60,777 bases of DNA from a virus, in the IMG/VR virus record IMGVR_UViG_3300045988_022004; one strand, given 5' to 3'. This document shows positions 1,674 through 33,483 of the stretch, in pieces (within the stretch, counting starts at the first letter, position 1; each line of letters opens with the position of its first letter). Made by a program: the position numbers and the translations under genes. The notes under the pieces are model-generated. The model saw only the letters and a list, made by a program, of their open reading frames with translations, was not told the origin of the DNA and made no database searches.

Positions 1674-1749
1674 GGTGCTAGCTGAGACACTCGAACGCTA
1701 TTTAGAGTCTTCATGTTTGTGAAAGCTCTAAAAACATTCAAATCTCAGC

Positions 1750-2141: not shown

Positions 2142-4841
2142 CTATAAATATTTATTGATAGTTGATACAGAAAGTCCAGTTGCTTCAGCGACTTCAGCTT
2201 GTGTATAGCCGAAGTTAAGCATAGACTTGATTCGTGAAACTTGTGAAGCATTAACTGTAACAGCTTTTCTAGGTGAAGCGAATTGCTTAACCTTGTCTGA
2301 ATCGGCATTGTTAAGTATTTGCTCAAGTTTTGATGTACTGATTGCACCAGCTTGAATTGCTTGCCATTCTCTTTCAGATATGTCTACCTGAACATTAGAC
2401 TTAGATGCACCAACCTTTGCTCTAGCTGCTGTTAAAGCCTGCTGACCAGCTCGTTTGATTTCATCTGGTGTCCAATCAGGATTGGCTTCCTGCTTCTTCT
2501 TTAATGTCTTATTAGCTAATATCTGCGCCTGTCTTTCTTTTGGCGCGTTTTGTAGCGCCCTATTAAGCTTAGCGTTAAGACTTGCAACTTCAGTTGAATA
2601 CACTTCTTTAGCTTTAGCATTCATTTCGATGTTCTTAGTTGCAACCATGTTCTTTCTAGCTATGTTAGCCATAGACTTAAGGGAGTTGGCATAGTCGGCA
2701 TATGCAACCTCTTTTGGATTCGGATCTTTAGATAACAAGGTACGGGCATCCGTAGTAGCTGCCATCTTTGTTGTTTTTGTGGTAGCCAGTTTTTCTCCTC
2801 TTGATTCCCATGTCCCATCCTTATTTCTTTTCCAGTCCGTATAGGTACGCCCTGTAAGCTCCGGATGTACTTCACCAGTCTTAGGATCAATGTCCTTCAA
2901 ACGAATCTGTTTTGCTTCAGGAACATAGGCTACTGACTTAGACCGGGATAGGAGTGTGGATGCACCAGCATCACTGGCACCCTGGTACTTTCTTTTTAGC
3001 TCGGCTATACGGTTCTCTTCAAAGGACCGCTTATAGTCCAAGCCATGTTTAGGAGCATCGATTACAACCATTGAGTGACGTACTGCTCTTGCAATTTCCT
3101 CAGGCTTTGCTCCTTTCAATGTCATATCAGTAATAAGGTTGGAGATCTTACCCATTTCCAATCCTTTACGTTTCTCTGGAAGTTTTGCTGTAACTCCTTC
3201 AATTCCACGGTACGCAATCTTAGGGTCGAAATCCTTTAAACCAATATATGCACTAATATCAGAAGTAGTTATTTTAACTTTTGATCTTGGCGAGTTAGAC
3301 GGAATTACTACTGCCGTATCTCCGTCAAAGTCAGCTCCTGATAATCTTTCTGCAACCTTAGAGTTAATACCAACTGCATCGATTGCATTACCAAGCATTG
3401 ACTTTCCTTGTGGATTCTTATTGTTTACTTTAAGCTCTGGAATCTCGAATGTACCACCATGTGGGAAACGAACAAGACATACAGTTTCTCCATTCTTGTA
3501 CGATGGTGCATATATTTCGTTGTCTTTTAGAGAAGAAACAGGTAAGATTACTTTAGAGCTTTGCCTTGGAAGTGCTGCTGCTTTAAGATCTACTGCCTGG
3601 CTGTCGCAACCCTCAGCAAAGTCTGCTAACAACTTCCGTTTAACAACCGGGTTTGTCATTTTGAGTATCTTATCAAGCTCATCCTGGCGATTGTCAATCG
3701 ATTGCTTAAGCTGCTTTTTGATCAATGGGAGCTGCTGTTTTGACAGGAACTGAGAAGCAAGGTTCTTAGAATAATGATCCCAATCGCCTTCCTCTTTCAG
3801 CTTGTTGATAGCTCCTAACTTCTCATTGCCATCCTTATCTTTGTAATGGTACTGACCATTTGCTTTAATTGTTGCTCCAAACGGATTATCCGGATCGTCT
3901 TTCATTTTCTTGAAGACATCCATTTTTGGTACATCACTTGTCTTGTTGGTATTGAATATTACATCAACGCCTTTTGGCATGTCGTCTGAATAGATTGCCA
4001 TACCTTTCAGATAGTGAGTACCATCAACAGCGATTCTTACCTGTGCGTAATGTGAATCGCCAAGGTCGAGATCCTTAACGCCTCTTCGAAGTTCGATAAC
4101 TCCATCTTTCTCCAGACCACCTTTGTCACCATATCTTACAGCAACTCGACTTGATGAGATACTTGTAGGGTATTCCGGAGCCCAGAAAGTAGTTCCGCCA
4201 TCATTGGAATACTTGTTTACTGGCTGGATCTTATCAGTATGCTGCTGAACATCTTTCCATTCAGTTCCTGGAGGGCAAAGAACTTTAGTAGTTGTATACT
4301 GCCCTTTTTGATTGATCTGTGGAACTCTTACAGAATGTACTACATATCCGGCTTCTTTTAAGATCTGAAGAGAAACATCCAATCTTGTTTTGGTGATTCC
4401 CATCTCTCTTTCGACTCCAGTACCAACATCGATGAAGTTCTTGGTTCCAACTTTCTTAGCTAAGGTTTCGGCTGCATTGATGCATGCGTCTTTCTTAAGC
4501 TTTTCACCTTGGTTCAATAACGATCGAACTGTTGATTCTTTCGATGTTGAATTGAACATAAGTTCGGCTATTTTTACATTAGAGTATCCATGCTCTTTTA
4601 ATTTCATAGCTCTGTTGATTCGATCGACCTTTTCGGCATTGACATAAATCGACTGTTTATTTCTAAACTCAGTTGTCTTCATGCCCATGAATGCAGCAAT
4701 CTCTTTCTCACTCTTGCCACGAGCTTTCATTTCCTGAACGGTTTTCAAGAACTCTGCATTGTGCTGATATGGGTTGTCGCCAGAACCCCATGGGTATCTC
4801 CCCGAATGTCGAGGAGTACCATAGTGTGCTAAGTAGCTCAT
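2142..4841 (-). CDS. Single-chain double-psi beta-barrel (DPBB) RNA polymerase-like protein of the YonO / RNAi-RdRP / crAss-vRNAP type. It carries HTH-like modules and an N-terminal HYGTPRHSGRYPWGSGDNPYQ motif.
   Basis: aa 454-512 read VCLVRFPHGGTFEIPEL...ERLSGADFDGDTAVVIP. This is an R-x-P strand followed by a DxDGD metal loop (nt 3318-3332). HTH-like segments occur at aa 40-108 and 875-899. Confidence 0.6.
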   Translation of the reverse strand: MSYLAHYGTPRHSGRYPWGSGDNPYQHNAEFLKTVQEMKARGKSEKEIAAFMGMKTTEFRNKQSIYVNAEKVDRINRAMKLKEHGYSNVKIAELMFNSTSKESTVRSLLNQGEKLKKDACINAAETLAKKVGTKNFIDVGTGVEREMGITKTRLDVSLQILKEAGYVVHSVRVPQINQKGQYTTTKVLCPPGTEWKDVQQHTDKIQPVNKYSNDGGTTFWAPEYPTSISSSRVAVRYGDKGGLEKDGVIELRRGVKDLDLGDSHYAQVRIAVDGTHYLKGMAIYSDDMPKGVDVIFNTNKTSDVPKMDVFKKMKDDPDNPFGATIKANGQYHYKDKDGNEKLGAINKLKEEGDWDHYSKNLASQFLSKQQLPLIKKQLKQSIDNRQDELDKILKMTNPVVKRKLLADFAEGCDSQAVDLKAAALPRQSSKVILPVSSLKDNEIYAPSYKNGETVCLVRFPHGGTFEIPELKVNNKNPQGKSMLGNAIDAVGINSKVAERLSGADFDGDTAVVIPSNSPRSKVKITTSDISAYIGLKDFDPKIAYRGIEGVTAKLPEKRKGLEMGKISNLITDMTLKGAKPEEIARAVRHSMVVIDAPKHGLDYKRSFEENRIAELKRKYQGASDAGASTLLSRSKSVAYVPEAKQIRLKDIDPKTGEVHPELTGRTYTDWKRNKDGTWESRGEKLATTKTTKMAATTDARTLLSKDPNPKEVAYADYANSLKSMANIARKNMVATKNIEMNAKAKEVYSTEVASLNAKLNRALQNAPKERQAQILANKTLKKKQEANPDWTPDEIKRAGQQALTAARAKVGASKSNVQVDISEREWQAIQAGAISTSKLEQILNNADSDKVKQFASPRKAVTVNASQVSRIKSMLNFGYTQAEVAEATGLSVSTINKYL

Positions 4842-5404
4842 TCAATGCCCTCCTCTTTCTTGACTGATACAATGATCTTATCAAACGATTTAATCTTGTC
4901 CATGATAGGTAATATAATTTCAGGTGTTGGAGTCTCTTTAAGAATTTCGTTATTTTGATAGATTCTCAATTCAATTCCAATATCGCCTGGTTTGATTCCA
5001 TACTCTAAGCAGAACAGTGCAGTGTAGATTTCCAACTGCTGCATGTGAGCAGGAATATCGCCTGTCTTTAAATCATGGATTCTGAGATAGTCTTTTGCAA
5101 ACTTAATTGCGTCAGCTGTACCAAAACAATTCTCAGAATAATACAACACCTGCTCTGGTGTCATTCTGTACCCAATTGCATCATTGACATGCATGTTGAG
5201 TGTTAACGGTGATCTTGGCAATCTTTGCCGAAGCTTAATACATTTTGCTGCAAACTCATGCAACTCAGTTCCTTGCTGAGCTTTCAGAAATCTTCGGTAT
5301 GTGTTTTCAAGTTTCTCAGCATCATAGTTTATCCAATGATACTTGCTAGCTCCGAGATATGCGTGATCTCCTTCTTTTACTTGCGAATGCTTCCTGAATT
5401 CCAT
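4838..5404 (-). CDS. PD-(D/E)xK family nuclease (RecB/Cas4-like, phage exonuclease type).
   Basis: GASKYHW near the N-terminus; D..AIKF...IHDLKTG (D-x(n)-D-x-K). The ATG at 5404 follows AAAAAGGAGA. The track start at 5461 is an upstream extension. Confidence 0.55.
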   Translation of the reverse strand: MEFRKHSQVKEGDHAYLGASKYHWINYDAEKLENTYRRFLKAQQGTELHEFAAKCIKLRQRLPRSPLTLNMHVNDAIGYRMTPEQVLYYSENCFGTADAIKFAKDYLRIHDLKTGDIPAHMQQLEIYTALFCLEYGIKPGDIGIELRIYQNNEILKETPTPEIILPIMDKIKSFDKIIVSVKKEEGIE

Positions 5405-5672
5405 TATATATCTCCTTTTTGTTTTGAGGGTAAATGAAACTTCCGTATTGGCCCATTTCATTTGCCTTGTTTACATAGTAATCCTGATTAGGTCTGTGAC
5501 TAGCGTCGGCATCTCTTTTTACTTCAAGTAACGCCCATCCTTCTTTTGCTAACAAAACCAAATCAGGAATGCCCTGTTTATAATTAGGGTCGTTCTTTAA
5601 AATAATAGAATCTGGAAATAACTCTTTTAATTCCGAAATTATATCGGACTGAATTTTGTTTTCTTTATTCAT
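5346..5672 (-). CDS. VRR-NUC domain nuclease.
   Basis: GIPDLVLLAKEGWALLEVKRDADASHRPNQ matches the G-x-PD...E-x-K...Q pattern. Confidence 0.6.
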   Translation of the reverse strand: MNKENKIQSDIISELKELFPDSIILKNDPNYKQGIPDLVLLAKEGWALLEVKRDADASHRPNQDYYVNKANEMGQYGSFIYPQNKKEIYNGIQEAFASKRRRSRISRS

Positions 5673-5807: not shown

Positions 5808-5832
5808 ATAATAAGCTATGTTTTTTTCGCGA
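5808..5832 (-). promoter_or_regulatory. Promoter-like cassette P1: TCGCGA-N13-TATTAT on the minus strand.
   Basis: It has the same geometry as 15 other copies. It lies directly after the helicase stop and is followed by a leader of about 135 nt before gene 5346..5672. Confidence 0.45.
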
Positions 5833-7041: not shown

Positions 7042-7497
7042 CTAATCTAAATCAGCGTATTTTTCGGCGAACTTGTTCTCACGAATTGTAACATACATGG
7101 AATCTACATATGCTGTAATTCCGGAACGACCAGACATCTCCCATTCGTAAGGGCGAATTGAAATATCACAATTTACAATGTCAACGACATCGAGCTGCGC
7201 TACTGTGTTCTCATCCAGTAAGTTTTTATGATTACCAACAATAAGCCATACCTGAGTGTATCTGTTCATGTTAAGCTTTACAGGGAGCGTCCATTCCTGT
7301 TCTGAGGAATCCGCCCCTTCAGGAAGAGGACGTTCTTTGACGTTCCATCCCTCATTGCTTAATTCATCAGCCATTACCGGATCATCGATTACAACACTGA
7401 ATCCTCTTTTACCAGGATTGTATTTGTCTCTTTCTCCTGAGAAGTTCTTCCAAATAATAAGTGCACCTTCAATATTAATGTTGTTTACGTTTGCCAT
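7042..7497 (-). CDS. Candidate OB-fold ssDNA-binding protein, T7 gp2.5-like.
   Basis: 151 aa. ISIRPYEWEMSGRSGITAYV resembles the gp2.5 core. It has an acidic C-terminal tail (KFAEKYADLD) and lies between the helicase and polymerase genes. Confidence 0.45.
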   Translation of the reverse strand: MANVNNINIEGALIIWKNFSGERDKYNPGKRGFSVVIDDPVMADELSNEGWNVKERPLPEGADSSEQEWTLPVKLNMNRYTQVWLIVGNHKNLLDENTVAQLDVVDIVNCDISIRPYEWEMSGRSGITAYVDSMYVTIRENKFAEKYADLD

Positions 7498-7512
7498 GAT
7501 AGACCTTCCTTT

Positions 7513-14787: not shown

Positions 14788-14866
14788 GAGATGCAAACGG
14801 GATATGAACCCGCATCTCTGGTATAGGGAAATACCAGTGCACTGCTATTGTGCTATTACGCATCTC
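14788..14866 (-). ncRNA. Promoter-proximal structured leader of about 79 nt. It can fold as a cloverleaf (tRNA-like) or, alternatively, as a terminator hairpin.
   Basis: GAGATGC (14866-14860) and a second GAGATGC (14818-14812) can each pair with GCATCTC (14794-14788). Three internal hairpins are present. One has a T-arm-like GGTTCATATCC. A U-rich tract follows. Confidence 0.4.
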
Positions 14867-14871
14867 TTCTC

Positions 14872-14896
14872 ATTATAACATGTGTTTTTTCTGCGA
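14872..14896 (-). promoter_or_regulatory. Promoter-like cassette P2: TCGCAG-N13-TATAAT, with a TGT extension.
   Basis: Consensus geometry. The predicted transcription start falls at the first base of the structured leader. Confidence 0.5.
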
Positions 14897-20877: not shown

Positions 20878-20879
20878 TT

Positions 20880-21068
20880 CTATTCCTCCTTGTTTACTTT
20901 GTGCTGCTTACCACAACGTGGACATTCGATGTAAGATATAACCGCCTGCAATTTTCCCATACCATAAAGCTTGTCTTTTTTAATATCTTTTTCATCATAA
21001 GAGAATCTGCATCCACAGTTTTCACACTCACCGATTGTCTTGGTTCCACGCTCAATAACTTTAATCAT
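20880..21068 (-). CDS. Zinc-ribbon protein; paralog pair member B.
   Basis: MIKVIERGTKTIGECENCGC...CPRCG. Confidence 0.65.
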   Translation of the reverse strand: MIKVIERGTKTIGECENCGCRFSYDEKDIKKDKLYGMGKLQAVISYIECPRCGKQHKVNKEE

Positions 21069-22136: not shown

Positions 22137-22161
22137 ATTATAGAATATGATTTTTTTGCGA
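22137..22161 (-). promoter_or_regulatory. Promoter-like cassette P3: TCGCAA-N13-TATAAT.
   Basis: Consensus geometry, immediately after the stop of 22164..22994. Confidence 0.5.
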
Positions 22162-22994: not shown

Positions 22995-23010
22995 TTTGTT
23001 TTCTCCTTTC

Positions 23011-23838
23011 TTATATCATGCTTGACTGATACTCTAAATCTTTGAACCAGCCTTTGGCTTCTCGTTTCTCTGTTTTTGTTGCCATAAATAATCCATGCGG
23101 TAAGTCGAGATATCTTATATAATATCCTTCGCTATTTTCAAACGGTACTAACTGAATATCAATCCATTCGTCAGTCTTATCATTTTCATCCATATCAATC
23201 TTAGACCAACCAACGATGTCTCCAAAACATGTCGGATTTAAATCAAGATCATATCTAAACTGATTCAAAGTCACTGTCTGATTTGGATTCATGACTAATT
23301 TCCTATTTAGTTTTAGTATAGCAGATTCTACTGTTGCTTTATCGGCATAGAATCCTTGGTCTGTCAGGCTGTCAATGAAGAATATCAATCCAGTAGTATC
23401 TACGAATTTTGATTCCTGCTCAGATACTGTTTTCGTTATTGGTGTTCTGCTTGCCTTCCAAATATCTTCTTCTTTTTCTTTACCTACCTCGTGTACTACT
23501 TCGTCTCTATATCTTTTAAAGTTCGCCTGTAAAAGACTCATAGCACCTGCTAATGCAGCGAGCTGTTTCTTATTTAAGAAGTTTGATCCAAAGATGCACC
23601 CTATTGTAGCAGCGCCAACTACAATAGACGGAGCATAAATCGGAGCTACAACCTTTACTTCTTCAATAAACGTAAGCTCTCTATGCTTCTTTTTCTCGAC
23701 CTCATCGATTTTAAGTGTCGCCTTTATAGATGCCTTATTAGTAAGCATATTAGATACGACTACGCCTATAGCCGCACCTATAGACAAGATAGTAGGCATG
23801 TTTCTTTTAATAAAATATCCCACCTGTTCAGTGTTCAT
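23011..23838 (-). CDS. Two-TM membrane protein; family member 3 of 3.
   Basis: See 18348..19316. GGAGTCAAAATG start context. Confidence 0.65.
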   Translation of the reverse strand: MNTEQVGYFIKRNMPTILSIGAAIGVVVSNMLTNKASIKATLKIDEVEKKKHRELTFIEEVKVVAPIYAPSIVVGAATIGCIFGSNFLNKKQLAALAGAMSLLQANFKRYRDEVVHEVGKEKEEDIWKASRTPITKTVSEQESKFVDTTGLIFFIDSLTDQGFYADKATVESAILKLNRKLVMNPNQTVTLNQFRYDLDLNPTCFGDIVGWSKIDMDENDKTDEWIDIQLVPFENSEGYYIRYLDLPHGLFMATKTEKREAKGWFKDLEYQSSMI

Positions 23839-23862
23839 TTTGACTCCTTTCTAGAAAAGCTT

Positions 23863-23886
23863 AAAGGCCATGTTTCCATAGCCTTT
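23863..23886 (-). terminator. GAAA-tetraloop hairpin (family copy 2).
   Basis: AAAGGCUAUG-GAAA-CAUGGCCUUU, then AAGCUUUUCU, then RBS and ATG. Confidence 0.5.
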
Positions 23887-23896
23887 AGCCGATCAC

Positions 23897-24172
23897 TTAA
23901 TGATTCTCACAATGTTTAATGTTGAAATCCACTAATGCTTTGAGGACTTCTGGGTTCTTTACATTCTCATTGATCATCAGGTTGAAACAGCAATTCATTC
24001 CCTGGTCGAATCCTTTATGGTACATCGATTCCATGCCATTTGCAATGCCATGTCCAATACGATTACCAATCAGATAACAACCAGCTAACCATGCTACTGT
24101 TTCAATCTGATCTTTATGATCGTGCACAAACTCCTTTACTCCGTTCAACTTCTGTTTAGTTTCTTCTTTCAT
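23897..24172 (-). CDS. Hypothetical protein with one TM helix.
   Basis: Track ORF; ATG follows GAAAGGAG. Confidence 0.6.
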   Translation of the reverse strand: MKEETKQKLNGVKEFVHDHKDQIETVAWLAGCYLIGNRIGHGIANGMESMYHKGFDQGMNCCFNLMINENVKNPEVLKALVDFNIKHCENH

Positions 24173-24207: not shown

Positions 24208-24259
24208 ATTATAATACATGATTTTGTTGCGAAAGAAGAGAGGACCTGAATTAGTCCTC
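24208..24259 (-). promoter_or_regulatory. Terminator-promoter cassette P4: hairpin GAGGAC-N8-GUCCUC, U/C tract, TCGCAA-N13-TATAAT-GAGAAC.
   Basis: Hairpin at 24240-24259, TCGCAA at 24227-24232, -10 box at 24208-24213. Confidence 0.55.
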
Positions 24260-24419: not shown

Positions 24420-24444
24420 ATTATATACTATGATTTAGTTGCGA
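24420..24444 (-). promoter_or_regulatory. Promoter-like cassette P5: TCGCAA-N13-TATAAT.
   Basis: Overlaps the last codons of 24428..24667. Confidence 0.45.
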
Positions 24445-24667
24445 GACGGTTGAGTTCATTCATCATGATGTGTATGCCTTCAAGCCTGCCTGTTAAACGT
24501 TCTGTTTCCTTAATAATTTTCAGTCCTTCCGCTGATTCTTCATCTGGCAATGCTTCTGCTTCCTTATTTAATTCTTTTGCTCTTGCTAAGATTTTCTCTG
24601 CTTCTCTGTTAGCAAAGTCAATCATAACTAATAACTTATTGGTTTCTATGATTTTTTCTACTGTCAT
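24428..24667 (-). CDS. Coiled-coil protein; paralog of 27645..27875.
   Basis: Shared ...AKELN...ALPD..S.EGLKI..ETE.L.G..EGI... Confidence 0.6.
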   Translation of the reverse strand: MTVEKIIETNKLLVMIDFANREAEKILARAKELNKEAEALPDEESAEGLKIIKETERLTGRLEGIHIMMNELNRLATKS

Positions 24668-25731: not shown

Positions 25732-25755
25732 TTTGACTCCTTTCTAGAAAAGCTT

Positions 25756-25779
25756 AAAGGCCATGTTTCCATAGCCTTT
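25756..25779 (-). terminator. GAAA-tetraloop hairpin (family copy 3).
   Basis: Same sequence as 23863-23886. Confidence 0.5.
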
Positions 25780-25796
25780 AGCCTTAACTTTTGTTC

Positions 25797-26225
25797 TTAG
25801 ATCTTTGTCTTTGGGAAGATCCCAGGAAATGCCTTACTGAGTATTGCGCCTCCGTTACCTTCGAAAACCATAACCCCGATGCTCAAACCAGTCCAAGCTG
25901 CCAGCGTCAAGCCAGACTTGATCATTTCTAACTTTGAGTTAGTTTTGGATAGTAGCAGTTCACGCTCTCTAATGTCAAGCTCCCGTTCTTTGTGGCTCAT
26001 CTCTTTTTCAGATAAGCGTTCTTTACTAAGGATCTCTTTCGTTTTGAGATCGTACTCCTGTTTGAGTTTATCCTCTTCTAACTTCAATTTGTAGAAATCG
26101 ACCAAGTTTCCGGCAATAGCGTTTCGCTCGTCTCCGATTTTCTCATCAAAGAGTTTATTGTCCTCCTCGATAATTGTCTGTTCCAACACTTCTCTTAAGT
26201 CTGTAGTTCCTTCTTCTCTTGCCAT
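25797..26225 (-). CDS. Coiled-coil protein with a C-terminal TM helix.
   Basis: Track ORF. Confidence 0.6.
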   Translation of the reverse strand: MAREEGTTDLREVLEQTIIEEDNKLFDEKIGDERNAIAGNLVDFYKLKLEEDKLKQEYDLKTKEILSKERLSEKEMSHKERELDIRERELLLSKTNSKLEMIKSGLTLAAWTGLSIGVMVFEGNGGAILSKAFPGIFPKTKI

Positions 26226-26258: not shown

Positions 26259-26283
26259 ATTATAAGCTTTGTTTTATTTGCGT
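26259..26283 (-). promoter_or_regulatory. Promoter-like cassette P6: ACGCAA-N13-TATAAT-GAGAAC.
   Basis: The -10 box overlaps the stop codon of 26260..26508. Confidence 0.45.
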
Positions 26284-26508: not shown

Positions 26509-26921
26509 TTTGATCCCCTCCTTAAACAATTGTACAGACTGATCTTACATCCTATTGTGTCGCCGTCTTCGTTTGCTATAGTTTCGACATTTCTTCCATA
26601 AGGATTTCTTCGAACGACTTCATAGGCGAATCTTTCGTATGCCTTTTTGAATTCTTCTGAAGAAAATTTTGTCCCCTGCATAAATCGCTTCCCATAAATA
26701 TCGGATTTATAGTAATATTTACTATGTTCTTCACAATCTTTCACCGCCTTTTCGAATGCATGTACCTTATAGTATTGGTACCACTTATAATAGAAGTAGA
26801 AGCTTACACGTCCTGTCTCAACGACAATTGTGCATATAGGCCATCCATTGCTATCAATCGTGTTCTTTACGATCTCTGGTGCATGTCCAACCGCAGCCAC
26901 ACTTACACTAGTTTTTAACAT
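26505..26921 (-). CDS. Hypothetical protein.
   Basis: Track ORF with a 4-nt stop/start overlap. Confidence 0.6.
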   Translation of the reverse strand: MLKTSVSVAAVGHAPEIVKNTIDSNGWPICTIVVETGRVSFYFYYKWYQYYKVHAFEKAVKDCEEHSKYYYKSDIYGKRFMQGTKFSSEEFKKAYERFAYEVVRRNPYGRNVETIANEDGDTIGCKISLYNCLRRGSK

Positions 26922-27373
26922 TATTTTCCCTCCTTCATACTTTTAAACAGGATCTCGAAGCTGTCATCATTGAACTCAATTGCATGAGCAATATCTTTTG
27001 CAACAGCTCGAGCGTCTACAGGCATATTTGGCAACTTACCTGACACTAACGGACTCTTACCAATTGTCTTCATAACAGTATTCAGGTCAATGTATTTTGA
27101 CATCTTTACAGCTTTAAAGCCAGATAAGTCAACGATACCAGTTACAACATGGATATCAAGTATATTGTTGTCCAGATACACCATCTTCTTATCGATATCT
27201 TTTCCAGAGAATGGAATAATCATACTCTGATCATTGTCCCGATATAAGAATACAGCAGACAACAGGTCTCCACAATCCGGAACTAACCGAATAGAATTGC
27301 ACTCAGATGCAACCTTACTCTCATGAAACTTTCCATCCAAACCAATAAAATCCTCTAAATACTTTGCTACCAT
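26921..27373 (-). CDS. Hypothetical protein.
   Basis: Track ORF; ATG follows AAAGGAGGAAAC. Confidence 0.65.
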   Translation of the reverse strand: MVAKYLEDFIGLDGKFHESKVASECNSIRLVPDCGDLLSAVFLYRDNDQSMIIPFSGKDIDKKMVYLDNNILDIHVVTGIVDLSGFKAVKMSKYIDLNTVMKTIGKSPLVSGKLPNMPVDARAVAKDIAHAIEFNDDSFEILFKSMKEGK

Positions 27374-27410
27374 TTTTTGTTTCCTCCTTTAAAATAAAAA
27401 TATAAAAAGA

Positions 27411-27430
27411 AGAAGCCCGTGAAGGCCCCT
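27411..27430 (-). terminator. Rho-independent terminator candidate.
   Basis: 7-bp stem including G-U pairs, followed by UCUUUUUAUAUUUUUAUUUU. Confidence 0.5.
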
Positions 27431-27431
27431 C

Positions 27432-27608
27432 CTATTTTTTGTGATGCTTTTTCCAAATGTGTCTGATAATAACATAAATTATTAAACCAGCTACTATAAC
27501 ATCTCCGAAAGACAGCAGTAATGAAATACCTCCTGCTAAAAGCAGTAATACTCCAACTACTATCACTCCTAATAAAATAGCTCCTAAAATCAATAATGTA
27601 ATCATCAT
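27432..27608 (-). CDS. 58-aa two-helix membrane micro-protein (MMITLLILGAILLGVIVVGVLLLLAGG...).
   Basis: ATG follows AAGGAGGAATGT. It replaces the implausible overlapping track ORF 27367..27639. Confidence 0.55.
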   Translation of the reverse strand: MMITLLILGAILLGVIVVGVLLLLAGGISLLLSFGDVIVAGLIIYVIIRHIWKKHHKK

Positions 27609-27627: not shown

Positions 27628-27652
27628 ATTATAGCACATGAGATTTATGCGA
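27628..27652 (-). promoter_or_regulatory. Promoter-like cassette P7: TCGCAT-N13-TATAAT, with a TGC extension.
   Basis: Overlaps the last codons of 27645..27875. Confidence 0.45.
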
Positions 27653-27875
27653 GGCGCTCGAGTTCTTCCATGACAAGGTTAATACCTTCAACTTTACCGG
27701 CTAAGTGTTCAGTCTCGACAAGAATTTTTAATCCTTCTTCCGAACTCTTATCTGGCAATGCTGCCATTTTTACATTCAATTCTTTTGCTCGATTCAATGC
27801 TTTCTCCATTTCCATGTTTACGAAATCATACAACAGGACTGTCTTGTCACGTTCAATAATGTCTTTTACTTTCAT
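27645..27875 (-). CDS. Coiled-coil protein; paralog of 24428..24667.
   Basis: ATG at 27875 in the GGAGTCAAAATG context. Confidence 0.6.
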   Translation of the reverse strand: MKVKDIIERDKTVLLYDFVNMEMEKALNRAKELNVKMAALPDKSSEEGLKILVETEHLAGKVEGINLVMEELERLA

Positions 27876-27900
27876 TTTGACTCCTTTCTGCGAAAAGCTT

Positions 27901-27924
27901 AAAGGCCATGTTTCCATAGCCCTT
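27901..27924 (-). terminator. GAAA-tetraloop hairpin (family copy 4).
   Basis: AAGGGCUAUG-GAAA-CAUGGCCUUU. Confidence 0.5.
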
Positions 27925-27929
27925 ATGCT

Positions 27930-28094
27930 TTAATCCTCCTTATCATTTTTCTTAGTTTTCTTCTTGAATGGAAGTTTAATAATTCCTAACCACATGAGTT
28001 CTCCAACTGTGATCACCATCGAAATCAATGATCCGATAAGTGTCATTTTGAACCATCCTCCGTAAGTAATTGGTTTACTAAATAATCCTTTCAT
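27930..28094 (-). CDS. 54-aa membrane micro-protein (MKGLFSKPITYGGWFKMTLIGSLISMVITVGELMWLGII...).
   Basis: ATG follows AAGGAGGTAATTATA. It is not in the track. Confidence 0.5.
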   Translation of the reverse strand: MKGLFSKPITYGGWFKMTLIGSLISMVITVGELMWLGIIKLPFKKKTKKNDKED

Positions 28095-28129
28095 TATAAT
28101 TACCTCCTTATGATAATAGTTTATTTCTC

Positions 28130-28186
28130 ATTATAATATATGAGATTTTTGCGAGAAAAAGAAAGAGCCAATGTTTCCATTAGCCC
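28130..28186 (-). promoter_or_regulatory. Terminator-promoter cassette P9: GAAA-loop hairpin (family copy 5), U tract, TCGCAA-N13-TATAAT-GAGAAA.
   Basis: Hairpin at 28165-28186, TCGCAA at 28149-28154, -10 box at 28130-28135. Confidence 0.55.
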
Positions 28187-28193
28187 ATCCTAG

Positions 28194-28304
28194 TTAAAAT
28201 AGCAAAGCTCCTAATCCAAGCCCAATTCCTACCAGTGCAATTACCGGTCCCAGAATTGCCAATGTAATAAATACCTTTACTATGTTTGCTAAGAATTCTT
28301 TCAT
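28194..28304 (-). CDS. 36-aa hydrophobic micro-protein (MKEFLANIVKVFITLAILGPVIALVGIGLGLGALLF).
   Basis: The ATG at 28304 follows AAGGAGGAGCTAAA. The upstream part of the track ORF is leader sequence. Confidence 0.5.
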   Translation of the reverse strand: MKEFLANIVKVFITLAILGPVIALVGIGLGLGALLF

Positions 28305-28325
28305 TTTAGCTCCTCCTTTCTTCCT

Positions 28326-28377
28326 ATTATAGGAGAAGAATTTATTGCGAAAGAAGAGAGGACCTGAATTAGTCCTC
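28326..28377 (-). promoter_or_regulatory. Terminator-promoter cassette P10.
   Basis: Hairpin GAGGAC/GUCCUC at 28358-28377, TCGCAA at 28345-28350, TATAAT at 28326-28331. Confidence 0.55.
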
Positions 28378-28608
28378 ATCCTCACTCTTAATGACTTTCA
28401 TTTTTCCTTTCTGCACAAGTCTTTTTAAATCCTTATCCGTATACCCGAGTGCTCTAAGAGCATTTTCAGCCTTGGCTATTTCCTCTTCTACTTTGGCAGT
28501 TTCTTTTTGCCTTTCGATAAGGATCTTGTCAAGTCTTTCATTCTCCTCTCTTAACATCTCCAGTATGGGATCTGATTTCTTCTTTGTGCGTATAAAAAAT
28601 CTAAACAT
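28369..28608 (-). CDS. 79-aa coiled-coil protein ending in EDED.
   Basis: The ATG at 28608 follows GGAGGTGATTAGT; the track start is a GTG at 28617. Confidence 0.6.
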   Translation of the reverse strand: MFRFFIRTKKKSDPILEMLREENERLDKILIERQKETAKVEEEIAKAENALRALGYTDKDLKRLVQKGKMKVIKSEDED

Positions 28609-28622
28609 ACTAATCACCTCCT

Positions 28623-28673
28623 ATAAAGAGATATGAATTTCTTGCGAAAAGGAAACGGGCTTTGAATCGCCCG
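28623..28673 (-). promoter_or_regulatory. Terminator-promoter cassette P11, with a weak -10 box.
   Basis: Hairpin CGGGC/GCCCG at 28656-28673, TCGCAA at 28642-28647, CTTTAT at 28623-28628. Confidence 0.35.
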
Positions 28674-28684
28674 CGTCCCTAGAC

Positions 28685-28903
28685 CTATTTAGTTTTCTTC
28701 TTTGATTTTCTAGAATCATACCACATCTGCAGTTGGCCATACTCCCATACGCATGCACCATATCCAACTATGCTAAGTGCTAATCCGATATAGAGACCTA
28801 CATTGTAGATCATCCAGAATCCGATTATCATTAGTAATGTTGGTGCACATACAAAGCTCAAAGCTGCCAACAGTGCAAATGCTCGTTCAATCTTTCTTTT
28901 CAT
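28685..28903 (-). CDS. 72-aa two-TM membrane protein.
   Basis: Track ORF; ATG follows TAGGAGGTAAC. Confidence 0.6.
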   Translation of the reverse strand: MKRKIERAFALLAALSFVCAPTLLMIIGFWMIYNVGLYIGLALSIVGYGACVWEYGQLQMWYDSRKSKKKTK

Positions 28904-28930
28904 ATTAGTTACCTCCTAAATATAATCTTC

Positions 28931-28981
28931 ATTATAACCCATGAATATATCGCGAAAAGAAAGAGACCTTGATTAAGCCTC
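28931..28981 (-). promoter_or_regulatory. Terminator-promoter cassette P12.
   Basis: Hairpin at 28963-28981, TCGCGA at 28950-28955, TATAAT at 28931-28936. Confidence 0.55.
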
Positions 28982-29152
28982 AATCTCGCTTTCGTTCATT
29001 TCATTTACAATTCTGTCATATGCTCTTAAACCAGTGTCCTTGTCGCATGTTCTTTTTAATACCTCGTCAGTTCTTCTATCAACCACCAAGTATCTTTCAT
29101 TTTCATCCTGAACAAGTGCAATAGTTCCGTTACTTTTTACAAAATTATACAT
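28973..29152 (-). CDS. 59-aa hypothetical protein ending in EIEA.
   Basis: The ATG at 29152 follows AAAGGAGTGATTTAT. Confidence 0.55.
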   Translation of the reverse strand: MYNFVKSNGTIALVQDENERYLVVDRRTDEVLKRTCDKDTGLRAYDRIVNEMNESEIEA

Positions 29153-29168
29153 ATAAATCACTCCTTTC

Positions 29169-29221
29169 ATTATACGAATAGAAAATATTGCGAAAAGAAG
29201 AGAGGACCTGAATTAGTCCTC
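29169..29221 (-). promoter_or_regulatory. Terminator-promoter cassette P13.
   Basis: Hairpin at 29202-29221, TCGCAA at 29188-29193, TATAAT at 29169-29174. Confidence 0.5.
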
Positions 29222-29398
29222 ATCCTCGTCATCATAACTAAACCTTATTGCTACTAAATATGCAATAATTCCGCATCCAAATGATGCTATTGGATTCATG
29301 ATTCCTGTCATAGTCAATACTGCAATTACAAGTACTGCTACTGGGAATATCATAATTACCCATCTTCCATCTTTGAATGTATTTAATAATTTTTTCAT
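29213..29398 (-). CDS. 61-aa membrane protein ending in DEDED.
   Basis: Track ORF with two hydrophobic helices. Confidence 0.6.
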   Translation of the reverse strand: MKKLLNTFKDGRWVIMIFPVAVLVIAVLTMTGIMNPIASFGCGIIAYLVAIRFSYDDEDED

Positions 29399-29436
29399 AT
29401 CTGTGTACCTCCATAATTTTGTTTAGTATAGTTCTC

Positions 29437-29489
29437 ATTATACTAAAAGAATTAAATGCGAGGCAAAAGAAAGAGGCCTTGATAGCCTC
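29437..29489 (-). promoter_or_regulatory. Terminator-promoter cassette P14.
   Basis: Hairpin at 29473-29489, TCGCAT at 29456-29461, TATAAT at 29437-29442. Confidence 0.5.
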
Positions 29490-29652
29490 AATCATCGTAG
29501 TGATATACCCATCTATAAACTCTAATGAGTAATGCTATTGGGAATAACACAATTCTTATGGGTGTATATACGAATTTATTTATCCTGTTCCGTTTCCGGA
29601 CCCAATCCTTATATTCATCCGATTTCATCCATTCCGAATATGTTTGTGCCAT
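29488..29652 (-). CDS. 54-aa membrane micro-protein (MAQTYSEWMKSDEYKDW...IRIVLFPIALLIRVY...).
   Basis: ATG follows AAGGAGGTAACTATT. It is not in the track. Confidence 0.5.
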   Translation of the reverse strand: MAQTYSEWMKSDEYKDWVRKRNRINKFVYTPIRIVLFPIALLIRVYRWVYHYDD

Positions 29653-29688
29653 AATAGTTACCTCCTTAAATATAATGGTTTATCTCTC

Positions 29689-29740
29689 GTTATATGACGT
29701 GAGATTTTTGCGAAAAGAAAGAGACCTTGAATTAGGCCTC
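29689..29740 (-). promoter_or_regulatory. Terminator-promoter cassette P15.
   Basis: Hairpin at 29721-29740, TCGCAA at 29708-29713, TATAAC at 29689-29694. Confidence 0.5.
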
Positions 29741-29926
29741 AATCTCCTTTAAATAATTCTTATGTAATTTTTTCATACGATATATGAATTTTACCATATT
29801 CAACACAGATCCAGATACTCTGTAAAGACCATCGTCGTCAACGCTTTTATACTCAATGCTATGACTCTTACAATAAGTCTTAAACTGTCCATCCAATTCA
29901 TCTGCAATTTCAATATATCCTTTCAT
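29732..29926 (-). CDS. 64-aa hypothetical protein ending in EIEA.
   Basis: Track ORF; ATG follows AAGGAGGAAAATGAT. Confidence 0.6.
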   Translation of the reverse strand: MKGYIEIADELDGQFKTYCKSHSIEYKSVDDDGLYRVSGSVLNMVKFIYRMKKLHKNYLKEIEA

Positions 29927-29961
29927 ATCATTTTCCTCCTTATAAATAAGTATTATTTCTC

Positions 29962-30016
29962 ATTATAAGATATGGAATTTTTGCGAGGTAAAAGAAGAGG
30001 CCCTGAATCAGGCCTC
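29962..30016 (-). promoter_or_regulatory. Terminator-promoter cassette P16.
   Basis: Hairpin GAGGCC/GGCCUC at 29997-30016, TCGCAA at 29981-29986, TATAAT at 29962-29967. Confidence 0.55.
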
Positions 30017-30277
30017 TACTCTTTGATCATCAATAATTTTGAAGTATTCAATTTTAATGTCCGGATAGCATTCTGTTATATACTTTCTTATTTTGAGATA
30101 TGTTCCATAGTGCATCTTGCAATTCAATACCCATTCTCCATTGATGAATAATACATCTGCCGATTGTATCTTACCTTCAGTGTATCCGCACCAATCAAGT
30201 ATTCCTGATATTCGTCCCAAGATATAGTCGTTAACATCATTCTCTTTGATTATAATTTGATATAACATTTTATCCAT
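30008..30277 (-). CDS. 89-aa hypothetical protein ending in VEA.
   Basis: Track ORF; ATG follows AAGGAGGATTTTAT. Confidence 0.6.
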   Translation of the reverse strand: MDKMLYQIIIKENDVNDYILGRISGILDWCGYTEGKIQSADVLFINGEWVLNCKMHYGTYLKIRKYITECYPDIKIEYFKIIDDQRVEA

Positions 30278-30313
30278 TATAAAATCCTCCTTAAATATAA
30301 TTATTTAGTTCTC

Positions 30314-30338
30314 ATTATACTCGGTGAAAATTTAGCGA
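30314..30338 (-). promoter_or_regulatory. Promoter-like cassette P8: TCGCTA-N13-TATAAT-GAGAAC. It is the first promoter after the late/lysis operon.
   Basis: Consensus geometry, 83 nt downstream of the holin stop. Confidence 0.5.
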
Positions 30339-30377
30339 AAAAGAAACACTCCATGAATATCCAGCGATAATGTAACG

Positions 30378-30408
30378 TCCCTAGACCCTCGCATAGAAAG
30401 TCTAGAGA
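30378..30408 (-). terminator. Hairpin with a TC(C/T)CTAGAC / GTCTAGRGA stem at the end of the late operon.
   Basis: Stem of 8 of 9 bp with a 13-nt loop, directly after the holin stop. The same stem sequence occurs at 33034-33065. Confidence 0.4.
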
Positions 30409-30420
30409 CATATATGCATA

Positions 30421-30645
30421 CTACTGCCTTTTTGCCGAAGCAGCTTTGCGTTTGTTATGCTGGCTGGTGCTAATACCGAGCAGAGCACCAAGAAAAGTAT
30501 CTACTGCAGTAATAGTTCCTACGACCTGGTCTCCATACGGAAGACCCCAGATGGTAGCAAGTGTAAAATACAGAGTACCAATCGCTGGTAAGGCAATCAA
30601 TGCAATCCATTTAAGAATATCATACTGTTTATTTGTTAACTTCAT
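30421..30645 (-). CDS. Holin, resembling the Dp-1/phi-LC3-type small two-TM holin family.
   Basis: MKLTNKQYDILKWIALIALPAIGTLYFTLATIWGLPYGDQVVGTITAVDTFLGALLGIS with a basic tail. The ATG at 30645 follows GGAAGGAGAAAG. It is the last gene of the late operon. Confidence 0.6.
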   Translation of the reverse strand: MKLTNKQYDILKWIALIALPAIGTLYFTLATIWGLPYGDQVVGTITAVDTFLGALLGISTSQHNKRKAASAKRQ

Positions 30646-33144: not shown

Positions 33145-33483
33145 TTATGTCAAAGACTCGCTGGTAGCCTCTGATTCGGATGTAACAATTGGATCGTTCT
33201 TGTAGGCTCTGATGGTGACATCATTAGATAACCCATCATGGATCTCAATAACATTGTCCAGTTTGAACCCGTCGAATGTAGTGACATTTTCATTGTCGTC
33301 TGTGATCTCCATATGAGAGATATTGTCGGCATTGCGGGCCGTAGAAGCGATTCTGTCAAACACTGCTGGGGATTCATATGTTGAAGTAATGTTCAGATAA
33401 GTTCTACCTGATTGATTCTGAGCATACTCTCTTGTAAATTTGCGAATATCAACTGTCGTTCCGTTTCCGAATTTAAGTTTCAT
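33145..33483 (-). CDS. Hypothetical protein.
   Basis: Track ORF; its start overlaps the radical-SAM gene's stop by 11 nt. Confidence 0.6.
   Translation of the reverse strand: MKLKFGNGTTVDIRKFTREYAQNQSGRTYLNITSTYESPAVFDRIASTARNADNISHMEITDDNENVTTFDGFKLDNVIEIHDGLSNDVTIRAYKNDPIVTSESEATSESLT

Follow-up and report, generated by a model that had tools for sequence, protein, structure and literature searches.

Why would a phage provide each gene in a run of tiny genes with what looks like its own promoter and terminator, and what reads these signals? The question is raised by segment 27,628–30,408 of IMG/VR record IMGVR_UViG_3300045988_022004, a viral sequence of 60,777 nt (hereafter the window) in which all genes are coded on the minus strand. 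The phage is an uncultured gut siphovirus of roughly 60 kb and shares a supercluster with Lactococcus phage 1706, Faecalibacterium phage FP_oengus and several actinophage clusters. A reading made from the sequence alone had likened the segment to the promoter-early stem-loop (PeSL) elements of other phages. The answer that we favour, and hold to be reasonably likely, is that these are PeSL-type cassettes built on a promoter of the phage's own two-barrel RNA polymerase.

Anatomy of the array

The repeated plan claimed for the array – hairpin, T/C tract, box, leader, Shine–Dalgarno sequence (SD), one small gene – is borne out by motif, hairpin and ORF counts (Table 1). Eleven genes of 36–89 aa, each behind a strong SD, run on the minus strand from the holin to 27.4 kb, separated by nine full and two degenerate copies of TCGCAA-N13-TATAAT-GAGAA; five of the 11 cassette ORFans have membrane-like segments. 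With up to two mismatches allowed, TCGCAA-N13-TATAAT has 22 matches in the window, where shuffles give 9.4 ± 2.8 (22 equalled in 0 of 100), and all 14 matches with at most one mismatch lie on the minus, that is, the coding strand. The outlying copies previously listed (24208, 24420, 26259, 22137, 14872 and 5808) were recovered in six cases out of six, the last with two mismatches and with same-position copies in Arthrobacter phage Correa and Gordonia phage OhMyWard. A 36-aa ORF (30301–30411) that overlaps the whole first element is probably not a real gene.

Terminator-like sites are similarly in excess between 21 and 31 kb (17 versus 4.6 ± 1.9 expected, 13 of them on the minus strand), with hairpin folding energies of -12 to -25.6 kcal/mol and z-scores of -2.1 to -6.1. 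The stems, put at 5–6 bp by the sequence-only reading, actually measure 6–11 bp and fall into two families. Hairpin plus T/C tract looks like an intrinsic terminator and may act as one. In five genes the stop codon lies inside the hairpin loop, and the 5' arm is therefore translated, the proteins ending in EA or ED. The idea that every gene is individually framed holds as far as hairpins go, since, of the 12 boundaries between holin and g41, just one (J to K) lacks a hairpin and the other 11 have one, but three boundaries are incomplete. In both J and its paralog (24428–24667), the following promoter sits inside the last codons.

Table 1. Features of the window, all on the minus strand, in the direction of transcription (promoter copies and hairpins are predictions)
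Feature	Position	Remarks or basis
Holin-end long hairpin	30377..30409	just past holin stop, closes structural/lysis block; -22 to -25 kcal/mol, z -4.1
Promoter copy 1	30314..30338	TCGCTAAATTTTCACCGAGTATAAT, then GAGAA; small hairpin and T-tract 5' of it, 30339-30362
Gene A, 89 aa, soluble ORFan	30008..30277	ends VEA, stop codon in hairpin loop
Hairpin of A, terminator-like	29996..30017	then TCTTTT; -14.7 kcal/mol, z -3.2
Promoter copy 2	29962..29986	0 mismatches
Gene B, 64 aa	29732..29926	ends IEA
Hairpin of B, terminator-like	29721..29740	site scan, folding
Promoter copy 3	29689..29713	TATAAC variant
Gene C, 54 aa	29488..29652	ORF, SD
Hairpin of C, terminator-like	29473..29489	site scan, folding
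Promoter copy 4	29437..29461	motif scan
Gene D, 61 aa, 2 membrane-like segments	29213..29398	ends DEDED
Hairpin of D, terminator-like (GAGGAC..GTCCTC)	29202..29221	site scan, folding; its 40-nt unit repeated at 28358-28377 and 24240-24259
Promoter copy 5	29169..29193	SD starts 2-3 nt past TATAAT
Gene E, 59 aa	28973..29152	sole cassette found at two positions among relatives
Hairpin of E, terminator-like	28963..28981	site scan, folding
Promoter copy 6	28931..28955	motif scan
Gene F, 72 aa, 2 membrane-like segments	28685..28903	in 28/29 arrays
Hairpin of F, terminator-like (GCGGGC..GCCCGT)	28655..28674	site scan, folding
Degenerate promoter copy	28623..28647	TCGCAA intact, CTTTAT instead of TATAAT, merges into SD
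Gene G, 79 aa	28369..28608	ends SEDED
Hairpin of G, terminator-like	28358..28377	site scan, folding
Promoter copy 8	28326..28350	0 mismatches
Gene H, 36 aa, 1 membrane-like segment	28194..28304	in 26/29 arrays
Hairpin of H, terminator-like, second family	28165..28186	contains ATGGAAACAT; z -5.0
Promoter copy 9	28130..28154	0 mismatches
Gene I, 54 aa, 1 membrane-like segment	27930..28094	ORF, SD
Hairpin of I, second family	27903..27922	GGGCTATGGAAACATGGCCT; -21.2 kcal/mol, z -6.1; repeated at about 25755-25780 and 23862-23887
Truncated element	27881..27896	TTTTCGCAG (TCGCAG box) joined straight to AAAGGAG (SD of J), without TATAAT
Gene J, 76 aa	27645..27875	paralog at 56% identity
Promoter copy 10	27628..27652	overlaps J 3' end; without hairpin
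Gene K, 58 aa, 2 membrane-like segments	27432..27608	ORF, SD
Array-closing strong terminator-like hairpin	27408..27433	site scan, folding
g41, next gene past array	26921..27373	has SD, without motif copy
Outlying promoter copy	26259..26283	5' of gene 25797-26225
Outlying promoter copy	24420..24444	AGGAGG directly 3' of TATAAT
Outlying hairpin and promoter copy	24208..24259	identical to D/G type unit
Outlying promoter copy	22137..22161	0 mismatches
Outlying promoter copy	14872..14896	directly 5' of tRNA-like gene
tRNA-like gene	14793..14859	Rfam RF00005, 35.8 bits; begins about 10-13 nt past TATAAT; no ARAGORN call
ssDNA-binding protein	7042..7497	homolog in relatives annotated 'single strand annealing protein'; recombination role possible
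Variant promoter copy	5808..5832	5' of exonuclease-RNAP operon
Exonuclease, Cas4/DUF2800-type	4838..5461	recombination role possible
Two-barrel RNA polymerase, QDE-1/YonO-type, 899 aa, C-terminal HTH	2142..4841	proposed promoter reader

The repeated signal and its probable reader

The first reading of this DNA implied a host sigma-70-type promoter, which fits neither the make-up nor the distribution of the signal. The conserved unit, of about 31 nt, is TCGCA-N6-(A/T)CA-N5-TATA(A/G)T-GAGA and not a sigma-70 -35/-10 pair. At 45 distant loci it occurs 243 times on the gene strand and twice on the opposite one, and the ACA triplet, GAGA and T-tract are conserved in these distant copies though not part of the search. 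It was found in Streptomyces phage Scap1 (61% GC), Arthrobacter phage Correa and Lactococcus phage 1706, and Gordonia phage OhMyWard has 12 copies versus 0 on the opposite strand (0.07 in shuffles), whereas 596 Gb of bacterial and archaeal genomes gave only 10 matches, each single and unrelated. Judged by sequence, the signal is specific to a phage lineage and shared across phages of Actinobacteria and Firmicutes. Its promoter function, start site and timing of use are points that we infer, as are the recombination enzymes considered below.

That the cassettes are nonetheless a classical PeSL or moron array, with ordinary host sigma-A (sigma-70-type) early promoters of poor -35, intrinsic terminators and host RNA polymerase as the sole reader, is unlikely. 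TATAAT is a perfect -10 hexamer, the sequence upstream of the element is T-rich, the first-expressed genes have no other visible promoter family, and two genome announcements on cultured Gordonia relatives already noted the repeated motif as a 'sigma-70 -10' (Vardy, Conley). However, a spacing of 13 nt makes the TCGCAA box unsuited to be a -35, a scan for canonical sigma-70 promoters found no enrichment (33 versus 33.7 expected) and none in intergenic positions, and the 31-nt composite with its TCGCA, ACA and GAGA parts is kept across phages that infect Streptomyces, Arthrobacter, Gordonia, Lactococcus and gut hosts and is essentially absent from bacterial genomes. Moreover, the SD starts at most 5 nt past TATAAT in 66 of 497 elements, with a peak at distance 0, where AGGAGG directly follows TATAAT in 35 unique elements, and transcription beginning about 7 nt downstream would leave such an SD outside the mRNA; alternatively, read-through transcripts could serve for translation of the genes concerned.

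The reader is probably the phage's own polymerase. This protein is a full-length match to phrog_4291 with an invariant DFDGD loop, and its AlphaFold model (mean pLDDT 79) shows a QDE-1/YonO-type two-barrel fold, the top Foldseek match being QDE-1 (2j7n; E = 3e-7, probability 1.0), with beta'-type subunits and the crAss phi14:2 virion RNAP next in rank. Such an enzyme, known from the literature as a signature of the supercluster, is encoded by all phages found with the signal. Transcription would start at the purine immediately 3' of TATAAT, which would thus play the part of TATA (-4..-1) in T7-type promoters. Because the polymerase gene lies downstream of the motif copy at 5808, this model requires either that the virion bring the enzyme in or that the host carry out some of the first transcription. 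Entry with the virion is possible; the only hint in that direction is that the polymerase homolog in Lactococcus phage 1706 is annotated 'structural protein'.

Mot-box promoters have a box centred near -30, 11–13 nt from the -10, and TAnnnT is recognised by housekeeping sigma factors of Firmicutes and Actinobacteria. Since TATAAT is a perfect sigma-70 -10, host RNAP aided by a conserved phage activator is a possible, if rather unlikely, reader. On the model of T4 MotA/AsiA, host RNAP would then act on TATAAT and the phage factor on the TCGCA/ACA boxes, replacing -35 recognition, and the elements would be analogues of the 'PmSLs', middle-promoter variants of PeSLs described in phage nt-1. The geometry is Mot-box-like, universal recognition of TAnnnT would account for use across host phyla, the lineage has HTH proteins, and the protein at 16093–16500 has a weak Mor/late-activator-like match. 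Against this, SDs adjoining TATAAT disfavour a start 7 nt downstream, the lineage-wide GAGA right after TATAAT is what an initiation region typically shows, no protein resembling MotA or AsiA was identified, and the factor would be needed before any phage gene expression.

Cassette shuffling among relatives

Within a 6.5-kb hyperplastic region (about 23.7–30.3 kb) 3' of the lysis genes, modularity is highest in the 2.8-kb array. Alignment to 20 of 20 full-length relatives holds to 30.3 kb, where coverage falls sharply, to return at 23.7 kb, and the holin-to-g41 distance varies among relatives from 1.0 to 3.7 kb despite holin identity of at least 94%. The PeSL-like swapping at cassette boundaries that had been proposed is supported by this population, 29 related arrays displaying 25 compositions built from 26 cassette families. 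With long-block (HSP) ends scored in a zone of -60 to +75 around the TCGCAA box, 91.5%, 94.4% and 89.9% of breakpoints lie at the element versus about 45% in the null (top randomisation 50–58%), although some of this enrichment is built in, as HSP ends necessarily fall at the border between common and cassette-specific sequence. Blocks start at a median of -7 and end at +28 relative to TCGCA. At the junctions, promoter, leader and gene move jointly while hairpin and T-tract remain with the upstream gene. Exchange affects promoter, leader, gene and terminator as one unit, with crossovers in the T-tract and promoter core. The same trend, if weaker, is seen in seven cultured Gordonia genomes (38–53% versus 22%). 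Gain and loss, as anticipated, and also replacement are abundant, whereas reordering is limited to one cassette in one genome.

Could the elements be purely regulatory, the mosaicism stemming from random illegitimate indels, selection for intact transcription units and, in part, chimeric metagenome assembly? The order of cassettes departs little from a single pan-order, and differential deletion, together with ordinary homologous exchange in the flanking sequence, could accordingly account for much of the pattern. One IMG/VR dataset (3300045988) supplies most of the arrays, and repeat-induced assembly chimeras could have inflated apparent mosaicism, a concern that independent-sample contigs and isolate genomes lessen without eliminating. 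Yet all four presence/absence combinations occur in 56 of 91 informative cassette pairs, identical promoter, leader and gene units stand behind differing upstream neighbours, joined cleanly within the shared 15–35 nt, one cassette has been relocated, two boundaries carry degenerate 'half' elements as in PeSLs, the enrichment extends to isolate genomes and the phage encodes an exonuclease/annealing pair, all of which makes a purely regulatory role quite improbable.

It is very improbable that the hairpins serve, in the manner of integron attC, as structure-specific sites of recombination at which a site-specific recombinase moves cassettes with the box being incidental. An imperfect inverted repeat does bound each cassette, and an array of small ORFans is superficially integron-like, but a scan of about 40 proteins yielded no integrase or recombinase, stem sequences vary between cassettes, about half of the motif copies lack a hairpin, and it is the T-tract and promoter core, not the hairpin, on which breakpoints centre. 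Furthermore, integron cassettes have no promoter of their own, whereas these have one each.

Probable PeSL-type cassettes on a phage-lineage signal

The array agrees in most respects with the published definition of PeSLs, for which degenerate 'half' elements have also been reported. It differs in that classical PeSLs carry a host sigma-70-type -35/-10 promoter and the array a phage-lineage signal. In the reading that we favour, each unit would consist of (i) TCGCA-N6-(A/T)CA-N5-TATAAT and GAGAA, read by the single-chain two-barrel polymerase and not by a host sigma factor, (ii) a short leader and strong SD, (iii) one ORFan of 36–89 aa and (iv) a hairpin with T/C tract, whose 5' arm often codes the final residues and stop codon and whose T-tract adjoins the next promoter. 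All cassettes share 35–60 nt at both ends (hairpin 3' arm, T-tract and promoter core), and homologous or single-strand-annealing recombination at these repeats, for which host RecA or the exonuclease/annealing pair of the phage are candidate executors, would delete, insert or replace cassettes within one genome and between co-infecting relatives. Such exchange would leave the expression of neighbouring genes undisturbed.

Anatomy of the post-holin array

All genes in the window are on the minus strand and, in the direction of transcription, terminase (~60.3 kb) and structural genes are followed by the tape-measure and holin genes, the mini-gene array, replication-type genes and finally the gene for an 899-aa protein. 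The array consists of 11 genes of 36-89 aa (cassettes A-K), five of which have membrane-like segments; a PHROG search with the cassette proteins found no family, except one marginal excisionase-like match (E = 7e-4) that was disregarded. The motif that recurs at their boundaries, TCGCAA-N13-TATAAT, has 22 matches in the window at up to two mismatches versus 9.4 +/- 2.8 in shuffled sequences, and its copies with at most one mismatch are all on the minus strand (14 of 14). Nine full copies fall within the array and degenerate ones mark two further boundaries, and every outlying copy listed in the sequence-only reading was recovered in the window scan.

The hairpins are no less conspicuous. An independent scan found 17 terminator-like sites in 21-31 kb versus 4.6 +/- 1.9 expected, and 11 of the 12 array boundaries have a hairpin (predicted folding energies of -12 to -25.6 kcal/mol, z-scores of -2.1 to -6.1). 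The composite elements are almost certainly real and non-random. Two families of hairpins, which had previously been missed, are found in the array, and a 40-nt unit made of hairpin and T-tract occurs as three near-exact repeats in the window. In five genes the stop codon lies inside the hairpin loop (the proteins ending in EA or ED), so that the 5' arm of the hairpin encodes the C-terminus, and in gene J and a paralog the following promoter is embedded in the final codons.

Features of the window and their positions
Feature	Position	Strand	Remarks
Non-coding stretch with GC-rich inverted repeats (e.g. CACCCGGAGGGGG..CCCCCTCCG)	1440-1790	(-)	Separates the RNAP operon from the first late genes; likely cos/ends region, since its position is that of the physical genome ends of cultured relatives
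TTGACA-N15-TATAAG	1554-1580	(-)	In the non-coding stretch, directed at late genes (first ATG 1402); sole near-consensus host-type promoter noticed
899-aa protein	2142-4841	(-)
~400 nt with no convincing ORF	5405-5807	(-)	Flanked by a variant motif (5808-5832) on its upstream side and by the exonuclease-RNAP operon downstream; possibly a long leader or non-coding RNA; no Rfam match at gathering threshold
tRNA-like gene	14793-14859	(-)	Rfam RF00005, 35.8 bits vs gathering score 29; unusually long anticodon arm; starts ~10-13 nt after a motif copy; no tRNA called by ARAGORN, unlike Rfam
Small cysteine-rich paralogs, two runs	14898-15591 and 20650-21068	(-)	One run of three (MxGxCxCDxCGxxY..), other of two (MIKxIExGTKTxxECxxCGC..); resemble tandem duplications of zinc-ribbon-like genes
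Paralogous DUF6353/phrog_2152 proteins, 275-322 aa	18348-19316, 22164-22994, 23011-23838	(-)	Conserved throughout the supercluster; annotated as membrane proteins in some relatives
Motif copies	24208, 24420, 26259		In the hyperplastic region
Paralog of gene J	24428-24667	(-)
Full motif copies (nine)	27628-30338	(-)	In the array
Degenerate motif copies	28623-28647 and 27881-27896	(-)	Two further array boundaries
Holin	30421-30645	(-)
TCGCAAATTTACAAGAGAGTATGCT	33421-33445	(-)	Late region, 5' part of gene 33145-33483; fits the distant-relative motif form (TCGCAA..TTTACA) with a poor TATAAT; possibly fortuitous or a weak internal promoter
Variable segment in the structural block	36600-37800		Within a probable tail fibre or receptor-binding protein of 794 aa (36417-38801)
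Second structural variable segment	above 40800		Distal end of the 2931-aa tape-measure gene

Exchange of cassettes among relatives

Using the protein immediately upstream of the holin, 33 related IMG/VR loci were retrieved, in which holin identity is at least 94% and yet between 1.0 and 3.7 kb separate the holin from g41, the next conserved gene. When 29 arrays were split into ORFs and the proteins clustered, 26 cassette families emerged in 25 distinct combinations, nearly all cassettes being preceded by the motif. Cassette order is colinear among arrays, cassette E (found at two positions) being the sole exception. As many as 56 of the 91 informative cassette pairs occur in all four combinations of presence and absence, for which a single nested deletion series is an insufficient explanation. 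Across 20 full-length relatives, conservation collapses at exactly 30.3 kb and returns at 23.7 kb, which makes the array the upstream portion of a 6.5-kb hyperplastic region that contains 12 of the 15 motif copies in the window. Variability is also seen at two segments of the structural block (see the table), where 2-12 of the 20 relatives align.

Aligning relatives had been proposed as the check for swaps at the boundaries, and swaps were found, with 90-94% of breakpoints at the element versus a null of ~45%. In this test, long high-identity blocks were retained from all-against-all BLASTN of the arrays, and a zone of -60 to +75 around the TCGCA box was defined. Depending on the threshold, 91.5% (>=200 nt, >=85% identity), 94.4% (>=250 nt, >=90%) or 89.9% (>=300 nt, >=95%) of breakpoints fall in this zone versus ~45% at random positions, the highest randomisations reaching 50-58%. 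Relative to the TCGCA box, the median block start is -7 and the median block end +28, so that adjoining blocks overlap on the promoter core. A listing of junctions shows that TCGCA, spacer, TATAAT, leader, Shine-Dalgarno sequence (SD) and ORF travel with the downstream gene, and that hairpin and T-tract remain with the upstream gene. An example is cassette F, whose promoter is identical in a genome where the cassette follows D and in one where it follows E.

A single IMG/VR dataset supplied most of these arrays, and chimeric assembly at repeats could exaggerate their variety, but contigs from other samples and isolate genomes argue that the mosaic pattern is real. In seven isolates of Gordonia cluster DJ, which have 6-9 motif copies per post-holin region, 38-53% of breakpoints are at the element versus 22%, above all 300 randomisations at two thresholds, an enrichment that is weaker than in the gut cluster. 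As judged from these alignments, cassettes are very likely exchanged in nature at element boundaries, the residual doubt stemming from assembly artefacts and a bias built into the breakpoint test. A search for cassettes A and E in other phages, by a method that detects close relatives only, had matches in the close cluster only.

As to how exchange might occur, the sequence common to the junctions (3' arm of the hairpin, T-tract and promoter core) is 35-60 nt long. Among the products of the window are an exonuclease of the Cas4/DUF2800 type, with 47% identity to the 'exonuclease' of relatives, and a protein homologous to their 'single strand annealing protein' (33% identity, E = 1e-20). Such a pair could recombine across 35-60-nt repeats, host RecA being the alternative. 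An integron-like array was considered as well. Integrons have an integrase gene, attC-type sites and promoterless cassettes; here, no recombinase or integrase was found among the scanned proteins, the hairpins are cassette-specific, the cassettes have their own promoters and breakpoints fall in the promoter core rather than in the hairpin, which led us to reject this possibility.

There is also a likeness with morons (Hendrix and colleagues) and the SPO1-type host-takeover module, which are single genes or small operons with their own promoter and terminator, lying between other genes or grouped where the early region begins, and encoding small accessory proteins. The anatomy of the cassettes (single gene, own promoter and terminator) would fit a moron; no integrase was found among the scanned proteins and no prophage copy by motif scan of 596 Gb of genomes. 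Morons are scattered and use host promoters, typically in temperate phages. The SPO1 module uses sigma-A early promoters and is not known to exchange cassettes at shared boundary repeats.

A candidate promoter and the two-barrel RNA polymerase

What kind of signal is the motif? A scan for canonical sigma-70 promoters found 33 versus 33.7 expected and missed nearly all motif copies, no canonical promoter was found at an intergenic position on the whole transcribed strand, and the TCGCAA box, 13 nt from TATAAT, cannot act as a -35. A normal sigma-70 -35/-10 reading was therefore rejected. A promoter of which the hairpin is part (N4-style) was rejected too, since about half of the copies have no hairpin and hairpins track gene ends. 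For the late genes, the host-type promoter in the non-coding stretch raises the possibility that they are transcribed by host RNAP, as in P23-45.

The motif reaches well beyond the close cluster. A search of IMG/VR gave 118 matches, most with 3-12 copies on a consistent strand. Many carriers are distant relatives (25-50% protein identity) in which motif-preceded small genes again follow the holin, and motif-bearing contigs have lineage proteins in common. In 45 distant loci, 243 copies are on the gene strand versus 2 on the opposite strand, and positions outside the search pattern are conserved as well, giving TCGCA-N6-(A/T)CA-N5-TATAAT-GAGA with a T-rich upstream region. In 596 Gb of bacterial and archaeal genomes, a more specific version of the motif had only 10 hits, all of them unrelated single copies with no homologs or related genes nearby, and no prophage turned up. 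The sole hint to the host is a Lachnospiraceae MAG, one contig of which encodes an RNAP with 84% identity. Searches for the nearest cultured phage, by DNA and by terminase, found distant relatives alone. On this evidence, the motif is most probably a promoter.

The other protagonist is the 899-aa protein, which matches phrog_4291 over its full length, a family annotated 'RNA-dependent RNA polymerase'. Around 250 cultured phages have a homolog (44-50% identity), always at the same genome end, among them phages of Arthrobacter, Gordonia, Streptomyces and Faecalibacterium, and Lactococcus phage 1706, where it is annotated 'structural protein'. A preprint on this supercluster, which has no promoter analysis, assigns the protein to putative RNAPs of the YonO/crAss type, noting its DxDGD loop and helix-turn-helix (HTH) domains, and the promoter of YonO was explicitly left undetermined in the YonO paper. 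The catalytic loop is present as ADFDGDT, invariant in 4 and in 35 aligned homologs. Searches of the PDB by sequence (single sequence or 4-sequence profile) matched the HTH domains alone, and a predicted structure (mean pLDDT 79, pTM 0.66) and Foldseek were thus needed. The best solved-structure match is the Neurospora RNAi polymerase QDE-1 (2j7n, E = 3.3e-7, probability 1.0), followed by beta'-type subunits of multisubunit RNAPs and then the virion RNAP of crAss-like phage phi14:2 (6vr4). The invariant loop and the modelled fold both confirm the assignment of the protein as a two-barrel RNAP. Some homologs are on 140-275 kb contigs, which suggests that some family members are integrated or reside in much larger elements (no integrase was seen in the window).

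The two are found together in cultured phages. Streptomyces phage Scap1, with a GC content of 61%, has 6 motif copies, 5 of them within 1.4 kb directly after the holin, Arthrobacter phage Correa has 5-7 and Lactococcus phage 1706 has 3. In Gordonia phage OhMyWard, all 12 copies are on the gene strand (shuffles give 0.07), each with a hairpin and T-tract upstream and a conserved leader. In Scap1 (22653-24085) and OhMyWard (7232-10023), the conserved block extends well beyond the presumed start site (GAGACCCCTACGAAAGGA...), and many small genes have near-identical 5' leaders, which may be a shared translation or RNA-stability signal. Since the motif is common to phages infecting Actinobacteria and Firmicutes, dependence on the sigma factor of one host is impossible. 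By genome comparison, the motif tracks the lineage carrying the polymerase, and it has the attributes of a phage-RNAP promoter, being long and rigid, keeping to one strand, including a conserved initiation region and being restricted to phages that encode the polymerase.

The main rival is that host RNAP may use the -10-like hexamer with the help of a phage activator bound to the upstream boxes, MotA style. What bears on this is where transcription starts. Among 497 unique elements with SD and start codon, the SD starts within 5 nt of TATAAT in 66, and the distance peaks at 0 (TATAAT|AGGAGG...) in 35 elements that precede several unrelated genes in close and distant relatives. With a sigma-70 start, ~7 nt downstream, the mRNAs of SD-abutting elements would have no SD; this geometry would fit a T7-type arrangement in which transcription begins immediately after TATAAT. 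We consider it likely that a phage-encoded factor, rather than the host alone, reads the motif, and lean slightly towards that factor being the two-barrel RNAP itself.

The exonuclease-RNAP operon itself is preceded by a motif copy, which Correa and OhMyWard have at the same position. An RNAP gene behind the motif would require either virion delivery or some host transcription. Virion delivery is hinted at by the annotation of the phage 1706 homolog, but we regard it as rather unlikely. A tentative joint reading, which we put forward as possible, is that the motif is the long-sought promoter of the very large family (at least 8000 database members) of QDE-1/YonO-type single-chain RNAPs in siphoviruses of Actinobacteria and Firmicutes, and that the virion brings in the polymerase, which transcribes the post-lysis cassettes before other genes. 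These would then be host-independent, plug-and-play early genes recombining at the polymerase's own promoter, their expression being independent of host promoter specificity.

Precedents and implications

The nearest mechanistic precedent is Thermus siphovirus P23-45, in which a conserved phage-RNAP promoter (AT-rich, used by the virion RNAP) lies upstream of the first expressed small genes, and for which motif-polymerase co-occurrence was also used as an argument (PMC10770324). As in P23-45, phi14:2 and T7-type phages, the motif here is long and rigid, keeps to one strand, recurs upstream of early small genes and is confined to polymerase-encoding phages, with a conserved block that reaches the initiation region. 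In contrast to these systems, the polymerase here belongs to a QDE-1/YonO-like branch with HTH domains, the promoter is a candidate read from sequence, and virion packaging is only hinted at. The motif itself has been seen before, in the Gordonia cluster DJ phages Vardy and Conley, as a 43-50-bp intergenic motif (five copies by MEME) whose TATAAT was read as a sigma-70 -10 (PMC9671010, PMC10868162). It is the same motif, in the corresponding post-holin region with its many small membrane proteins and terminators, but those announcements make no link to a phage RNAP, cross-phylum conservation or cassette exchange.

The array had first been likened to the promoter-early stem-loops (PeSLs) of T4-type phages. 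These are defined by a sigma-70-like early promoter and a stem-loop terminator, located between ORFans in hyperplastic regions and at indel boundaries, and mini-circles detected by inverse PCR (PMC2839356, PMC4122927). Most of the likeness stands: (i) promoter and stem-loop form composite elements between small ORFan genes, ending in SD and start codon, (ii) the elements concentrate in a hyperplastic region, (iii) they bound insertions, deletions and replacements between close relatives, (iv) degenerate 'half' elements are found near indels and (v) the stem-loop is just upstream of the promoter, as in phage PST. What does not stand is the host sigma-70 early consensus (-35, ~17 nt, -10). The 2014 paper admits a 'PmSL' variant on Mot-type middle promoters (PMC4122927) that similarly has no -35 but an upstream box and a -10; however, the promoter here is neither sigma-70 consensus nor Mot-type but a 31-nt lineage-specific signal, probably read by the phage two-barrel RNAP. 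Other differences are that the 5' arm of the hairpin is often coding, and that the carrier is a 60-kb siphovirus of the 1706/actinophage supercluster rather than a T4-like myovirus, which makes the elements analogues, not homologues. The evidence here is population-scale (29 arrays) and purely computational, whereas PeSL mini-circles were demonstrated experimentally and stem-loop and promoter function was shown with reporters (PMC2839356, PMC4122927). The array is thus probably made of PeSL-type exchangeable cassettes in an unrelated, very large siphovirus lineage, with a promoter that is probably that of the lineage's two-barrel RNAP.

Shuffling at composite terminator-promoter elements was documented only in T4-like myoviruses, and a PeSL-like motif was suggested for one haloarchaeal myovirus. 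The present case, observed across a population, concerns an unrelated lineage of siphoviruses with high abundance in the human gut, which argues that cassette shuffling is a general, convergent route to renewing the host-takeover/anti-defence repertoire without breaking the expression of neighbouring genes. The boundary element supplies a large family of phage two-barrel RNAPs with a concrete promoter candidate, and the motif offers a simple rule for picking out ORFans with independent expression across thousands of phage genomes from metagenomes. Owing to the presence of the same motif and architecture in easily grown phages of Gordonia, Arthrobacter, Streptomyces and Lactococcus, both the shuffling and the promoter claims are directly testable, and the joint reading of promoter and virion RNAP, if true, could help explain how this lineage has crossed phylum boundaries.
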